This document shows positions 2,643 through 18,720 of a stretch of DNA of 24,275 nt, in pieces. This stretch comes from a virus (lineage: Duplodnaviria > Caudoviricetes), in IMG/VR virus record IMGVR_UViG_3300044267_003379, positions 1 through 24,275 of that record. One strand, given 5' to 3'. Below the pieces are notes generated by a model. That model was not told where the DNA came from. It was given only the letters and a program-made list of their open reading frames with translations, and did no database searches. The position numbers and the translations under genes were made by a program. Position 1 is the stretch's first letter; every line of letters starts with the position of its first letter.

Positions 2643-3053
2643 ATGCCCAGCAGAAGTAAGCAAAAAGGTAACAGATTTGAGAGAGAAGTTACAAATATTG
2701 CAAAAGAACATGACATAGACTCTCAAAGAGCCTATGCTAGTAATGGATTGTCTCTTGGACACGCTGAAGAGGTAGATGTTTTGCTAAAGACACCTGACAA
2801 GGATTGGAGAGTCCAATGCAAGGTTAGAAAAAATATTGCAAATTGGATTAAACCCGATTCTAGCGTTGTTGATTTACAAGTAGTAAAAGAAGACAGGGGG
2901 CAAATATATGCAATATTGCCATACGAAGATTTTTTAGAACTAATTGCAGATGAAGAAGAATATAGAAATTCAGGTCAGGAAAAATTAGATGAAGAGAGGG
3001 ATTTATATAGGGAAAGAATGAATGAGATAGAAAATGAAATCAAAAGATTATAG
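2643..3053 (+). CDS. Holliday junction resolvase-like PD-(D/E)XK nuclease
   Basis: SKQKGNRFEREV...VDV...VQCK motif; AGGAG RBS. Confidence 0.8.
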   Translation: MPSRSKQKGNRFEREVTNIAKEHDIDSQRAYASNGLSLGHAEEVDVLLKTPDKDWRVQCKVRKNIANWIKPDSSVVDLQVVKEDRGQIYAILPYEDFLELIADEEEYRNSGQEKLDEERDLYRERMNEIENEIKRL

Positions 3054-3225
3054 AAAAAACATAAAAATAGGGCAAAGCGTTACCGCTAAGTCGAAAAACA
3101 TAGATGGAGATACGGTCTTTGTGAGTGGTGAAATATCTTCCATTAACGAGGATATTGTATTTATTAGCAGAAGGTTCCCCAAGGTTGAACATTTTTCTGT
3201 AAAAATAAAAGATTTAATAATATAA
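3034..3225 (+). CDS. Hypothetical protein (small beta-rich)
   Basis: 63-aa ORF packed between the resolvase and initiator genes. Confidence 0.6.
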   Translation: MKSKDYRKNIKIGQSVTAKSKNIDGDTVFVSGEISSINEDIVFISRRFPKVEHFSVKIKDLII

Positions 3226-6432: not shown

Positions 6433-6972
6433 TTATTTCTCCTTTTTTGGTATTTCAAAATTACATTCTATGTGTACCCATCCATATTCGGTCATTCCAT
6501 CAACCATCCGATTGGTCATTCCGTACAATTGTTCTGATATTTCATCGTCTGTCATGTGGCTTATTTTTTCCCCAAACAAATTACGAACATCCTCTACGCA
6601 CCAATAAGTACCTGTAAAAATGCTAGCATCCTTTGGCGGGTTAAGGTTTATTTCGTAAGTGTCTAGCCTCGGATGTGTTTTTTCGAGCGATAGTTTAACA
6701 TCTGCCTCCATTTCGCCTACAGTATTCCACTTTTTTCTATCAAAAACAAGCCTGTCATTAATATCGGTAACAATTCGCTCTTTTAATTCCTCGTCCTCAC
6801 TTACTCCCGCCATCGCGGTCTCTATCATGTCTGACAACACAAAATGCTTGTCAAATAGCATCCCTATTATCTCATCTAAAACATCTTTCATCACGCTATC
6901 ATATAACTCTTGCTCATTGCAATCAAAGCACTCCGATTGTAGCGATGTGTCATGTTTACATACGTCACTCAT
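6433..6972 (-). CDS. Hypothetical acidic protein
   Basis: 179-aa ORF, GGGG RBS, tightly packed. Confidence 0.7.
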   Translation of the reverse strand: MSDVCKHDTSLQSECFDCNEQELYDSVMKDVLDEIIGMLFDKHFVLSDMIETAMAGVSEDEELKERIVTDINDRLVFDRKKWNTVGEMEADVKLSLEKTHPRLDTYEINLNPPKDASIFTGTYWCVEDVRNLFGEKISHMTDDEISEQLYGMTNRMVDGMTEYGWVHIECNFEIPKKEK

Positions 6973-9374: not shown

Positions 9375-10277
9375 TTACCCCCTAAACCATATTGGTTTGT
9401 TTGCTAGTTTTTGAAGTGTCTCTGCAAGTCCGTCAACCGCTTGTTCGGTTGTCTTGCAAAACCGTTGCTCTACCGTATGTAGTAGGTCGAGTTCTCTCTT
9501 GTACGCGTCTGTAGTTTCGCACTGCCACCCCATCCCACTACGGAACTCATATTGCTTGTCCATCAATCCAAAGCAATAGTCTCTAAATAGCCCCGACAAG
9601 CCCGCACTCATCAACCTATGTATGTCTAGTGGTTCGTTAGGCATTTTAATTGGTATTGATATTCCAAAGTAATCCCAATCATTATCGCCGTTGTATCTGA
9701 CGAAATTATACACCATCACCTCTACCGCATAACCCATTTTAGTTAGGACGTCACTAATCAGTGCTAGCGTGGCTCCTAGCCTAGCAAAATCCTTCTCCTT
9801 GTGTTGCCAAGACACCGCCATGTTCATTCCTATGCGGACATTTGAGCGTTGTGAATTTCGCTCTGTGGTCGACCAATATTGGTCTTGTCCGCCCATAAGC
9901 CTAGACATGCTTAGGTCATCGCCATCGTCCCTGACCACCCTTTTTCGTTTACAAGACAATCCCTTGCCGACAAACTTGGATATTCTCGAGTTCATGTCTA
10001 TCTCTGAGCGCATTTTTTGGTATAATCGAATTATCTTATCCGATGTTTGACCAACGGTCAATGCTCGTCTCAGATTCTCTCTTCCCACGATGTTTTTACC
10101 GTACGTCCAAGCCTCCCTATCTGTGTCAGGCTCTCCATTGTCGTGCCAAAATGAGCCTGTATTGTATATGCAATCAAGCATAGTTCTCATGTCAGGCATA
10201 TGAATAACCGCATGAGTACCTTCATTTTCGTCGTTAATGATTTTTGGTTCTAGTATTTTACTGTAAATGCTCTCCAT
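9375..10277 (-). CDS. Degenerate VWA/CobT-like partner of the AAA+ ATPase
   Basis: Coupled to the AAA gene; GDDLSMSR and VRIGMNMAVS..ALISDVLTKMGYAVEV resemble VWA-like topology without a clear DxSxS MIDAS. Confidence 0.55.
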   Translation of the reverse strand: MESIYSKILEPKIINDENEGTHAVIHMPDMRTMLDCIYNTGSFWHDNGEPDTDREAWTYGKNIVGRENLRRALTVGQTSDKIIRLYQKMRSEIDMNSRISKFVGKGLSCKRKRVVRDDGDDLSMSRLMGGQDQYWSTTERNSQRSNVRIGMNMAVSWQHKEKDFARLGATLALISDVLTKMGYAVEVMVYNFVRYNGDNDWDYFGISIPIKMPNEPLDIHRLMSAGLSGLFRDYCFGLMDKQYEFRSGMGWQCETTDAYKRELDLLHTVEQRFCKTTEQAVDGLAETLQKLANKPIWFRG

Positions 10278-11491
10278 TATTTGTACTCCCTTTTTAGTTC
10301 TCTGATATTGACCTTATCAAGTTCCTCTTTTGTCCAACCACAAGTTATCTTGTCAATTAACACCTTGTTCGACTTACCCGCCAATCTCCAAGTTTGACCG
10401 TCAATAAACAACCTAGTGCTGATAATCCTTTTAACGTGGTTGTCTTGTATGCGCTTTCTCAGGCTCCACAAACATTCTGCCATGTCTGTAAAATCTCCTG
10501 ATAGCGCTCTCTCGATGTTTTTGTCATAGTCAATGTGAACTTTTACGGCTTGCAATCTGTCTAGCGTTGCTCCGTCAATCTGTCCTCTACCCACATACTC
10601 GAAGTCTTGTCCATCACAAAGAGTATTGCTAGCAACCGCCACATTAAAGCCGTCCTTCTTAAGAACGTGTGGATTGTCTTTGTCGTTAGGTGTAGATAGA
10701 ACCCCTTGGTTATCTAGCACACTGTTGAACACCAATCCCGCATTAGCATCGAAGCCGTCAAATTCGTCAAGACATAGGAAGGTTCCATTTCTAAATGCCC
10801 TTGCTACGGAGCCGTCTATAAATGTTCCGTCAAAGGTCATTCTTCCTGTCATGTGCGATTCCGTCACTCCCGCTGAGCCTTTTAGATACTCATATGTGCC
10901 TTCTTCTTTGTCGAATCCCAAAGCCCTAGCACACTGTTCAATTAGAAAGGATTTTCCTGTGCCACTTGGACCGAAGGTCCAAACGCGACCAAAAAGTTTT
11001 AAACACTCCAAAACCTCTGCAAATTTCTCGTGTTTAAGACCCGACACCTCTTTTGTTTCTACGTCGTTAATGTAGACCTTGATTGGTCGCTGAAGACTTT
11101 CAATCTTTTTATCTACCCTCTTGGATAGATTTTCGGTCTCCTTGTGGAACGTAGAAATAAGAGTGTCCTCGGTCTCTTTGACCGCATTACCTATGCCATC
11201 TTCAATAAATGGCTGTACTCTAGTAAGCACTCCGTTTACAATGATGTCCTCTAAACTGCCGACAGTAGTTTGACCTGTGCTAGCAGGCTCCTTACTAGGA
11301 GCGGGAGGAGTTGGCGGAGGTGTTTTTGTGTCTTCTTTTGGCAATTCTCCTCCTAATATGTAGTCGATTAATTCATTTTTTGGGGTGGTCTGTACCCAAC
11401 TTCTTTTGTGACCGTTTTGCTTTGCCTTGGCAATAGCCAACTTCTTGACTCTGCCATGCGCCATTGCTTCGAGTTCATTTCTGTTATACAT
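10277..11491 (-). CDS. MoxR/CobS-like AAA+ ATPase
   Basis: Walker A GPSGTGKS, Walker B LCLDEFD, sensor VAVASNT, DGATLDR arginine finger, ISTR motif. Confidence 0.85.
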   Translation of the reverse strand: MYNRNELEAMAHGRVKKLAIAKAKQNGHKRSWVQTTPKNELIDYILGGELPKEDTKTPPPTPPAPSKEPASTGQTTVGSLEDIIVNGVLTRVQPFIEDGIGNAVKETEDTLISTFHKETENLSKRVDKKIESLQRPIKVYINDVETKEVSGLKHEKFAEVLECLKLFGRVWTFGPSGTGKSFLIEQCARALGFDKEEGTYEYLKGSAGVTESHMTGRMTFDGTFIDGSVARAFRNGTFLCLDEFDGFDANAGLVFNSVLDNQGVLSTPNDKDNPHVLKKDGFNVAVASNTLCDGQDFEYVGRGQIDGATLDRLQAVKVHIDYDKNIERALSGDFTDMAECLWSLRKRIQDNHVKRIISTRLFIDGQTWRLAGKSNKVLIDKITCGWTKEELDKVNIRELKREYK

Positions 11492-13475: not shown

Positions 13476-13940
13476 TTAGACGGTAACTAGGTTAATTTCG
13501 CCAATAGAGATTTCTAAAAATCTCTCTTCATGTTCTTCACAAAGGTCTCCATATTCGACGTTTATGAAAAAATAGTTCATTTTAGGATTTAACCAAGCGA
13601 AATAACCCTCTTTTCCAAAGAGATTCATCCCCCTTGATTTGCATAGATTTTCGTCACTATCTATCCCTTGCTTATCTACTCTAAAGAGTAGGCTGAAATC
13701 AAACCAACTTAATTGGCTTGCTTTATTATCCTTCGCGTCTGGTCTTATTCCAATTTGAAAATCAAAACAGAACCTTAAACCAAAGATATTTATATCTTTG
13801 GATATTTCAATTCCCTTGTAATGGCTCCTCCAAAACAGGGTTATACTGTCGGTTAACTCTTTCATTTGGGTGTTTACTCCATTTCGACGGCTATGGTTTT
13901 TATTCTTGCTAGAGTGTTCTATGCCGTCACTATAGGACAT
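13476..13940 (-). CDS. Hypothetical protein (likely start 13865, MKELTD)
   Basis: GGAG RBS upstream of the ATG at 13865. Confidence 0.6.
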   Translation of the reverse strand: MSYSDGIEHSSKNKNHSRRNGVNTQMKELTDSITLFWRSHYKGIEISKDINIFGLRFCFDFQIGIRPDAKDNKASQLSWFDFSLLFRVDKQGIDSDENLCKSRGMNLFGKEGYFAWLNPKMNYFFINVEYGDLCEEHEERFLEISIGEINLVTV

Positions 13941-14028
13941 TCTAGCACATAGGGTGTTTACTCTTATTCTACGCGTTCTTAGAGATTGCTCTAGGATGGT
14001 CTATTCCCGAAGGGAATAAGGCGCATTG

Positions 14029-14083
14029 AACCCTAGGTAGGACTCGAACCTACCTACCCCAAAGGGGTAGACCGTCTAGGGTT
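14029..14083 (-). ncRNA. D-armless tRNA-like RNA with UUU in the anticodon-equivalent loop
   Basis: Minus strand AACCCTAG-acggt-CTACC(CCTTTGG)GGTAG-GTAGG(TTCGAGT)CCTAC-CTAGGGTT: acceptor stem, anticodon-like arm and canonical T-arm. Confidence 0.65.
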
Positions 14084-14111
14084 TTTCGTTGTGTATCTCG
14101 TCGGTTACAGC

Positions 14112-14507
14112 CTACGCGCTTAGGTGCGCCCAGCGTTCCTGACCGTCGGAAGATTCGTCGATAGTGAAGCCCTGAGACAGCGCGCTATTCATCGCGTGGT
14201 CTAGCGCGTTCGGTACGTCGGACTCTTCTCGTCGTTGAAGTTCGTCTTCGAAGTCGTAGACGGCGGGCGTAATTACCGCGCGGTCTTGCGCACGAGACTC
14301 TTCTTCTTCCCAAATCTCCTCTTCGCGACTCTTCGCGGATGCGATAAAGTTCGCGAGCGCAGGCGAACGAAAGTCCTCCTCGTACACGAGGAGAGCAACT
14401 TCTTCTTCATGCGTAGGAATATCTACGCGTTCCATGTCTCCGACTAGGGTGTTTACGCTACCTTTGTCAACGACTACGTCGTTGGGTGTTATGATTGAAA
14501 TACTCAT
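14112..14507 (-). CDS. Highly acidic 131-aa protein, first gene of the early block
   Basis: AAGGAG RBS 8 nt before ATG; 31 D/E vs 10 K/R by manual count. Confidence 0.7.
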   Translation of the reverse strand: MSISIITPNDVVVDKGSVNTLVGDMERVDIPTHEEEVALLVYEEDFRSPALANFIASAKSREEEIWEEEESRAQDRAVITPAVYDFEDELQRREESDVPNALDHAMNSALSQGFTIDESSDGQERWAHLSA

Positions 14508-14512
14508 GGTTT

Positions 14513-14580
14513 GTCTCCTTCGCGAAGGGTGTCCTTCGCGTGTTTATATACGCACGTGCTATGCGTATGTGTTCAAAGCC
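14513..14580 (-). promoter_or_regulatory. Structured leader/promoter region of the early block
   Basis: Minus strand TTGAAC...TATATAAA with hairpin ATACGCA/TGCGTAT, then CGCGAAGG/CCTTCGCG and palindrome CCTTCGCGAAGG overlapping the RBS. Confidence 0.45.
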
Positions 14581-14689
14581 TTCGACGTTGTGCCGTCGGC
14601 GATGACCAAATTTAGCCATGGAATGATGCCAAACCTAGCCAAATCAGTATTACCGTCGGCAATAGGAGGCAAAGCGAGACAAAAAAAAG

Positions 14690-14860
14690 ATAAGGTACGT
14701 CTACGCGTAGGGAGACCGTCAACGCGAAACGCGTACTCAACGAAAATCGACAGAGCCGAACGCGTGCGGAGGGGGGTGTGCATACGTATGGTACGTCCCA
14801 TCCATTTTTTGCACAATTTTTCAATATAAACACACCTTATGTATATATAAACACATTAAA
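14690..14860. other. Candidate genome terminus/packaging-initiation region
   Basis: Divergence point between early and packaging genes; abrupt CG-rich to AT-rich switch; GGGGGG run, palindrome CATACGTATG (14781-14790) and T-tracts upstream of terS. Confidence 0.45.
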
Positions 14861-14905
14861 GAGAATATCTACAAAACCTCTATCCTTAACAATATTAACA
14901 CTTAA

Positions 14906-14990
14906 ATAGCCAAGCTATAGCCTTGCCATTTTTTTAAATGGCTAAGCTATGGCATTGCCATGCATATAGAAGTAGAAGTAGAAGTATATA
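14906..14990. repeat. Four ATRGC-N3-GCYAT boxes plus (AGAAGT)3: second copy of the origin-like element
   Basis: Boxes at 14906-14918, 14917-14929, 14938-14950, 14949-14961; AGAAGTAGAAGTAGAAGT at 14968-14985. Confidence 0.8.
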
Positions 14991-15035: not shown

Positions 15036-15130
15036 GCGGATTCAACCTTTTTACTTTTAACTATGATTCGATTATGATTATATTTATTACGGGGCTTGAA
15101 ATTATTTTTTTAACCAATTCAGGAGTAACA

Positions 15131-18075: not shown

Positions 18076-18720
18076 ATGAAAATTTTAAATCTTTATGCTG
18101 GCGTTGGGGGTAATCGCAAATATTGGTCAGGTGAAAATCAAATTGTTGCTGTTGAAAAAAACAAAGAAATAGCAAGTATATATAAGTCATTTTTCCCAAA
18201 AGATAAGGTCATTGTTGGGGATGCGCATGAATACTTAGCAACGAATTGGAAAAAATTTGATTTTATTTGGAGTAGTCCACCTTGCCAATCACATAGCAAG
18301 GTTAGGATGATGGCAAGTAAATCAGGTAGTTATGACGCTGTTATGCCCGATATGAAACTGTGGGCAGAGATATTATTTCTTAAAAACTTTACAAAAAACA
18401 CAAATATCAAATGGGTGGTTGAAAATGTAAACCCTTATTACGAACCTTTAATACCTCCAAGCCAGAAACTGGGAAGGCATTTAATGTGGTCAAATTTTTA
18501 TATTCCGAATAAAGACTTTGGAGACAATCTTACCCACAATGAAAGAGGTTCTTCTAGGACTGGCGTATTTGACTTAACAGAAATTAAAACTAAGCATAGA
18601 AAAGACCAAATCATAAGAAATAGCGTGAATCCGGAAATCGGAAAATATATACTTCACATTGTTCACAATAAAGAAATAAGCACAGATAAAGACCAACTGA
18701 AGTTACAGTGGTTAAATTAA
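18076..18720 (+). CDS. Short C5-cytosine DNA methyltransferase
   Basis: Motif I LNLYAGVGG, motif IV SPPCQSHS, motif VI VVENV, motif X-like RNSVNP. Confidence 0.85.
   Translation: MKILNLYAGVGGNRKYWSGENQIVAVEKNKEIASIYKSFFPKDKVIVGDAHEYLATNWKKFDFIWSSPPCQSHSKVRMMASKSGSYDAVMPDMKLWAEILFLKNFTKNTNIKWVVENVNPYYEPLIPPSQKLGRHLMWSNFYIPNKDFGDNLTHNERGSSRTGVFDLTEIKTKHRKDQIIRNSVNPEIGKYILHIVHNKEISTDKDQLKLQWLN

Follow-up and report, generated by a model that had tools for sequence, protein, structure and literature searches.

The 24,275-nt stretch of phage DNA analysed here (hereafter the window) encodes, downstream of a gene for a small acidic protein, a 55-nt tRNA-like RNA element whose fold is real and conserved. 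Judged from sequence comparisons, it belongs to an apparently uncatalogued family of mini-tRNAs without an anticodon arm, found in phages whose hosts differ and include bacteria of the sea, the gut and soil. The element is probably a tRNA-punctuation signal, a candidate substrate of host RNase P and/or 3'-processing enzymes; we infer cutting because the conserved features (the 12-bp acceptor/T stack, the T-loop, the GG and C74, with the anticodon arm dispensable) match what RNase P and RNase Z read. Punctuation of mRNAs by tRNAs is known from mitochondria; for a dedicated, repeated and anticodon-less phage version we found no description in the open full-text literature or in Rfam. The available parts of the catalogue of Fremin et al. 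mention five ARAGORN-overlapping tRNA-like candidates; a few family motifs had no match in 7 of its supplementary files, and its 10,006 candidates may still include the mini-tRNA motif (PMC10690425).

Fold of the 55-nt element and its conservation

The element begins 28 nt past the TAG of the acidic ORF (Table 1); its coordinates, this spacing and the fold are as described in an earlier, sequence-only reading of the same DNA. The minimum free energy structure consists of an 8-bp stem, a 5-nt linker, a 7-bp hairpin with a UUU triloop and a 5-bp T-arm, with a folding energy of -27.4 kcal/mol (z -2.9), which 2 of 200 shuffles equalled. Since the reverse strand is equally stable when folded, the energy does not give the strand. 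The paired T-arm motif has its sole instance in the 24-kb window here, and at the element ARAGORN and Rfam, both run on the window, returned 0 genes and 0 matches, respectively.

Table 1. Positions of the mini-tRNA element, its parts and neighbouring features in the window
Feature	Position	Strand	Remarks
Mini-tRNA element	14083-14029	-	13 stacked bp (12 + A-1:U73), mini D-arm, inserted hairpin, T-arm
Acceptor 5' strand	14077..14083	-	pairing and C-G/G-C swap in the lineage
Mini D-arm	14070..14076	-	2 bp around a YGG loop; covariation at both pairs among 36 family members
Inserted hairpin	14055..14069	-	6 bp, lineage-specific; stem covaries, cap varies
T-arm	14036..14054	-	canonical UUCGANU loop
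Acceptor 3' strand, U73 and C-A-A tail	14026..14035	-	
Acidic protein gene	14112..14507	-	131 aa; 31 D/E vs 10 K/R, pI 4.16
TAnnTTTG box	14607..14614	-	some 107 nt ahead of the acidic gene; same position in 15/16 sequences
Spacer hairpin	14092..14109	-	between stop codon and element; kept in close relatives, read from sequences
Hairpin with cUUCGg cap	14001..14020	-	immediately 3' of the element; found in some lineage members
Second conserved RNA element	13877..13947	-	hairpin; alignment of 15 loci

A search with the acidic protein identified 25 viral loci, 3 of which end too early to hold the element; it was present behind the acidic gene in 22/22 loci with downstream DNA, several of them near-identical. 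Farther relatives also carry it 3' of a homologue of the acidic gene (HH probability 97% for the one distant homologue tested). In an alignment of 20 distinct homologues from related marine phages, 99.7% of cells pair, and the covariation that the earlier reading had proposed to look for is found, with both-sided changes in each of the three helices. Neither the pairing percentage nor the covariation score was reached by any of 500 shuffles, and slid alignment controls were at most 58% paired.

The numbering used here is inferred from the copies in the cultured Gordonia phage VanLee (see below), which have 12 bp with -1 and 73 unpaired and so fix the scale as 12 bp plus an optional -1:73 pair. 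On this scale 14083 is -1 and 14082 is +1, the predicted RNase P cut lying between the two. The element had been called D-armless, and a full D-arm is indeed missing, but the linker region holds a 2-bp mini D-arm. Because this is the exact mini D-arm of the minimal family, the element can be described as the minimal form plus an inserted hairpin; across the lineage of the window 97.5% of cells agree with this pairing, and in its register the stems have 7 and 6 bp. The YGG is likely the G18-G19 partner of the T-loop in an elbow contact. The 3' tail lacks CCA, as had been noticed: when tested for an RCCA anchor, the window copy has U73-C-A-A, with C74 kept and no RCCA. About half of the lineage has C-U-A as the encoded tail, and an encoded CCA was not seen in it.

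The inserted hairpin occupies the place of a 4-5-nt spacer found in other family members. Its UUU cap (14063-14061, minus strand) had led to the proposal that a tRNA-Lys(UUU) decoy, aimed at PrrC or PARIS AriB, is expressed together with an Ocr-like DNA mimic. AriB does cut tRNA-Lys upon sensing Ocr (PMC11455837), the element always lies 3' of the acidic gene or a distant homologue, and 19 of 24 distinct lineage variants are capped by UUU. The remaining caps are UUC (2), AAA, UAAA and UUUA (1 each), to which locus L186, outside the regex count of 24 variants, adds GUA; the acceptor and T-arm are thus kept while the cap varies, even to loops of even length, the very outcome that had been named as speaking against a decoy. 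The bases flanking the cap, described before as able to pair and to leave a UUU triloop, are always paired in the lineage, and position 33 is C, not U. Without U33, a full D-arm or a 7/5 cloverleaf, and with nothing returned by ARAGORN or Rfam, the element is, as first supposed, not an ordinary decoding tRNA, and by its sequence the inserted hairpin is not an anticodon loop. Moreover, the arm is missing in at least about 60 relatives, the acidic protein has no similarity to Ocr, and the counter of T5 to PARIS is a cleavage-resistant working tRNA and not a decoy (PMC11455837). We therefore regard the cassette of decoy and DNA mimic as extremely unlikely; UUU, as the majority cap, may have a weak role. 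The processing signal for RNase P/Z, which the earlier reading had offered as its alternative, is favoured over the decoy by the evidence.

On its substitution pattern the acidic ORF is a real gene under purifying selection: in 15 pairs, which are not independent, codons with a single-base difference are synonymous in 343 cases and non-synonymous in 179, and the length changes among its homologues, which range from 82 to 151 aa through deletion of central blocks, are all in frame. The protein had no match in Pfam, PHROG, PADLOC or PDB, and comparison with T7 Ocr (gp0.3) gave an HH probability of 0.1% and a BLAST E of 2.0. Its AlphaFold model (pLDDT 58, pTM 0.21) was too poor to use and gave no Foldseek match, and the best Atlas score, 0.80, was uninformative. 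What stands of the label Ocr-like is a strongly acidic small protein that resembles Ocr in charge only and may or may not act as a DNA mimic. An ORF of the same operon (6433-6972) is equally acidic (22.3% D+E, net -21).

A wider family of anticodon-less mini-tRNAs

The model of the window's lineage also scored repeats of about 50 nt in unrelated phages, which have the same acceptor sequence and tail, lack the middle hairpin and stand after almost every gene. With a family pattern in which only the UGGA loop, the T-loop and CAA were fixed, 98 distinct pattern matches were obtained among the matches listed, 37 of which form all 13 stacked pairs; shuffled loci (5.4 Mb) gave 0 descriptor matches. 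Pooled with a metagenome scan, this yielded at least 61 distinct short-linker elements, one (L029) being dropped; this one and four long-linker rows (L087, L306, L344 and L366) are excluded from the member counts. The family comprises at least about 60 distinct elements of 44-46 nt, with an acceptor stem, a 2-bp D-arm with GG, a T-arm and C74, and with no anticodon arm. When 36 family members were aligned without gaps, both-sided changes appeared at 14 of 15 pairs; these rows were selected for pairing, and the count of 37/98 is the unbiased test. The 2-bp helix closing the YGG loop emerged from the alignment, unselected at position 8. A model built from hairpin-less relatives only scored the window copy at 35.7 bits (E 5e-6). 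Acceptor sequences vary freely in the family. Rfam, run on 30 loci, held no family for the element and gave only weak tmRNA T-arm or tRNA-Sec scores.

Several candidates were set aside. The first loose pattern gave mostly unrelated matches; of the 8 rows that passed the acceptor test, L038 lies outside the family. L203 and L211 were dropped as members, being positioned at the end of a permuted tmRNA; in the phage represented by L203, a Hatchet ribozyme, a RAGATH-9 RNA and the permuted tmRNA are clustered (303-473, 1332-1520 and 2660-3081). BLAST leads in SPO1, Miami, GE1 and PseuGesM_254 yielded no full-length member, and cr109_1 (24.2 bits) and P-GSP1 (21.9 bits) scored weakly and were not counted. 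The operon of L174 had no match among cultured phages.

Model matches numbered 6, 5 and 11 in three metagenomic phages and 7 in VanLee; these counts are lower bounds, as model R2 had no match at E<=0.001 in a further genome (G004) in which a window-type copy is present. Whole-record searches restricted the copies, in each genome, to one co-oriented run of small genes. The descriptor located 14 copies in VanLee over 9.3 kb, all between annotated small genes; the announcement of that genome does not mention them (PMC8320454). The VanLee copies have 6+6 bp, mostly with G1-C72, an unpaired -1, a purine at 73 and then C-G. C74 is present in 14/14 of them, where it was unselected, and in 104/107 distinct elements among the matches listed, where it was partly fixed by the search patterns; in the same listed elements C75 is found in 7/107. 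As side observations, most of the 11 copies in one metagenomic phage (G003; L550 1145-5125) end in G-1:C73 followed by CCA, presumably the tRNA-His identity pattern, which would make them candidates for aminoacylation; and VanLee gene 126 (L549 1-1368), about 5 kb from the nearest mini-tRNA copy, encodes a Ro60-like RNA-binding protein. tRNA finders overlook the elements entirely.

Proposed transcript processing and competing roles

We propose that a minimal tRNA mimic placed between small genes would recruit host tRNA-processing nucleases to a polycistronic, probably early, transcript. The GG of the D-loop would dock on the T-loop to form the elbow, from which RNase P would measure 12 bp and cut at +1 (14083/14082 in the window) with C74 as an anchor, and the lack of CCA in the tail may give RNase Z or 3' exonucleases access to the opposite side. 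Processing would yield separate cistrons, their new ends shielded by the element or by a frequent 3' hairpin. T7 RNase III sites are a functional parallel for the splitting of phage messages. According to the literature, RNase P cuts model substrates made of acceptor and T-arm and gauges a distance of 12 bp from the T-loop (PMC11143913; also PMC4919913), C74 pairs with G293 of RNase P and precursors without CCA are still cut, and RNase Z accepts CCA-less substrates, performs poorly when the 5' leader is long and is blocked by CCA (PMC1874595). A 3' hairpin starting at most 8 nt from position 72 follows 48% of elements vs 10% of shuffles; the window copy fails this test.

Several features count against punctuation. 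Pairing of -1 with 73 and a weak A-U first pair are poor features for RNase P; among the 107 elements listed, 83 have A-1:U73 and 67 a weak A-U first pair. A role for RNase Z is in turn weakened because long leaders are disliked by the enzyme and CCA blocks it, C74-C75 being present in the 7 listed elements mentioned above. Stop codons, for which ORFs were called mechanically, also count against it: among the matches listed, the stop of the upstream ORF lies inside the acceptor strand in 24/60 minimal copies, and 9 more stop exactly at the predicted cut. A 5' cut would remove the upstream stop in those 24, and which of the two sides is cut may vary with lineage; by their sequence, a cut at +1 in these listed copies would yield a non-stop mRNA. 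Stops placed in this way could reflect processing on the 3' side that leaves the element as a protective end, a deliberate inactivation of the message, or folding that is gated by ribosomes. Where the upstream stop lies 16-39 nt from the element, as in the lineage of the window, either cut would be harmless, and in the window copy the stop would stay intact after either predicted cut.

The same overlap might also be expected of an element that is never cut and instead binds a protein or blocks exonucleases while the transcript is being made or translated. It could serve antitermination or pausing, or be a switch that melts when a ribosome terminates at the overlapping stop; the stop overlaps the acceptor strand in 33/60 minimal copies among the matches listed, and in many VanLee copies a stop codon is 2-13 nt away, within the ribosome footprint. 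Such a role leaves the fixed 12-bp ruler and C74 unexplained and does not suit the stop distance in the window's lineage, and we consider both the uncut structure and the options listed for it unlikely.

Repetition invites a different account, in which the elements are excised mainly as small mimics of uncharged tRNA that titrate host readers of the acceptor end or elbow, message cutting being a by-product. The targets could be tRNA-end toxins, tRNA-sensing defences, RelA or the CCA enzyme, with repetition raising the dose. There are 5-14 copies per operon, the operons consist of small unknown genes typical of host takeover, the G003 copies end in G-1:C73 plus CCA, and the L5 Pleft region is toxic and yields abundant stable RNAs, according to the sections available (PMC5712189). 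However, the copies stand singly between genes, joined to the hairpin and ribosome site of the next gene, and form no tandem array; the window's lineage has one copy only; and the freely varying acceptor sequences mean that no single identity is mimicked. Titration as the main function is improbable in our judgement, and so is its action on any of the targets named.

A third account places the function in the DNA, the repeats being cassette boundaries for recombination and gene shuffling within the early region, and the fold a relic of a decayed tRNA. The gene 3' of the element differs among close relatives and copies within one genome are alike, as such boundaries would be; yet same-genome copies differ by compensatory stem changes, which lower homology while keeping the RNA fold, conservation of the T-loop and GG has no role in homologous recombination, and the window has a single copy. 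We think this quite unlikely. If punctuation is the true role, it would give phages a general means to set early-gene stability and stoichiometry via essential host enzymes. The family offers natural minimal candidate substrates of RNase P/Z with many compensatory variants, and with its 14 copies the cultured phage VanLee makes the punctuation reading testable.

Related tRNA-like RNAs and the surrounding operon

Among known systems, the t-elements of plant mitochondria fold like tRNAs and have a conserved T-arm but do not decode; through RNase P/RNase Z their borders define mRNA ends, including 3' ends within reading frames (PMC1920247). The phage elements, whose cutting is predicted, differ in their length of 44-55 nt, in an anticodon arm that is absent or replaced, in a 2-bp D-arm and in regular repetition through one operon. 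The mascRNA and MEN-beta RNAs, compared here by description, are likewise small tRNA mimics processed from a long transcript and RNase P substrates according to the part of PMC4919913 consulted, but are eukaryotic, single copy and four-armed. With the tRNA-like domain of tmRNA the element shares the acceptor and T-arm, a reduced D region with GG and a helix replacing the anticodon arm; it differs in having no G3-U70, CCA or tag reading frame, and ARAGORN finds no tmRNA. The bacterial Y RNA YrlA is a tRNA mimic with T and D loops, present in some phages, and a section heading of the source refers to RNase P cleavage and CCA addition (PMC4201824, in part); it is, however, circularly permuted and has a Ro60-binding motif, whereas the element runs acceptor-D-T-acceptor and has no Rfam YrlA match. 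T5 tRNA-Lys and T7 Ocr (PMC11455837) recall the UUU triplet in a hairpin and the acidic first gene of the operon, but there is no Ocr homology and the element is non-decoding, its triplet not conserved. The 8/4 and 9/3 tRNAs have anticodons, as stated in the part of PMC5389517 available.

A further analogue is the Pleft RNA of the mycobacteriophages L5 and D29. L5 (L553) has a 93-nt tRNA-like fold at 51,226-51,134 in the first early transcript, with a T-arm and acceptor; its T-stem differs from that of D29 (L541 1044-1149) by compensatory changes. In the parts available, Dedrick et al. place the 3' end of the abundant processed Pleft RNA at 51,140-51,190 and give no tRNA-like description (PMC5712189); the end of the fold at 51,134 is close to the published end, which lends the punctuation reading indirect support. 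Because the fold has 11 bp, alongside longer arms, and model R2 scores only its T-arm (17.7 bits), the L5 element is, on sequence grounds, an analogue of the mini-tRNA family and not a shown member. The family offers a structural way into the Pleft RNA of cluster A mycobacteriophages, which is toxic and unexplained. According to the same source, in the part available, a deletion that could not be made in L5 spans 51,195-51,407 (PMC5712189), an interval that includes the 5' acceptor strand of the fold. A second short, VanLee-like element with one mismatch, identified by eye and without an R2 score, lies at 50,472-50,426 of L5, downstream of gene 89.

One could join these points into a single picture, in which phages of very different hosts would share a hitherto undescribed class of mini-tRNAs, 44-55 nt long and ranking with the smallest elbow mimics in nature, that hijack host RNase P/Z to cut the host-takeover operon, gated by ribosomes at the acceptor-stem stop; released copies would be decoys for tRNA-sensing defences, and the L5 Pleft RNA would end in a larger version. 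As a whole, this joint picture is doubtful.

In the window, a rightward packaging/head module starts at 15074 and a leftward small-gene operon at 14507. Because the TAnnTTTG box, a candidate early promoter on its sequence, lies upstream of the acidic gene, this gene is likely the first of the operon; we take the box to resemble the Bacteroidota -7 box. In the second RNA element downstream of the mini-tRNA, loop 13928-13923 is complementary to 13891-13886, just before GGAG, the ribosome site of the following gene (which likely starts at 13865), and the two may form a pseudoknot or kissing loop, a pairing with little covariation. This second element adjoins the mini-tRNA directly in L007/L008 and has no Rfam match. 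Readings as an integron attC site or a hammerhead were rejected, the T-loop being conserved and the GAAA of the downstream element not.

The sequencing runs that hold half or more of the words of the region are seawater metagenomes. The window's terminase is less than 30% identical to those of cultured phages among the matches listed, and in a GTDB scan a small-terminase-like ORF had a single weak match, 17 residues long, and pointed to no host. Contig depth is higher in some runs but sums relatives, and was not taken as evidence of a terminal repeat. The promoter-proximal 800 bp (14100-14790) are strongly CG-rich, with the same trend in relatives; CGCG occurs 16 times in 14000-14800, in coding and non-coding sequence alike, vs 22 times in the remaining 23.5 kb. 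GATC and GGCC are absent from the 24 kb, and a DNA methyltransferase gene (18076-18720) lies between terminase and portal; together these likely reflect restriction avoidance. Within the small-gene operon, 9375-11491 (minus strand) holds an AAA ATPase gene (PHROG 249) followed by a 300-aa gene, a pair that we take to resemble the MoxR/vWA chaperone pair. Two imperfect 28-nt repeats form an inverted pair in the divergent promoter region (14902-14961), and similar repeats are found just 3' of the mini-tRNA in L009-L021.
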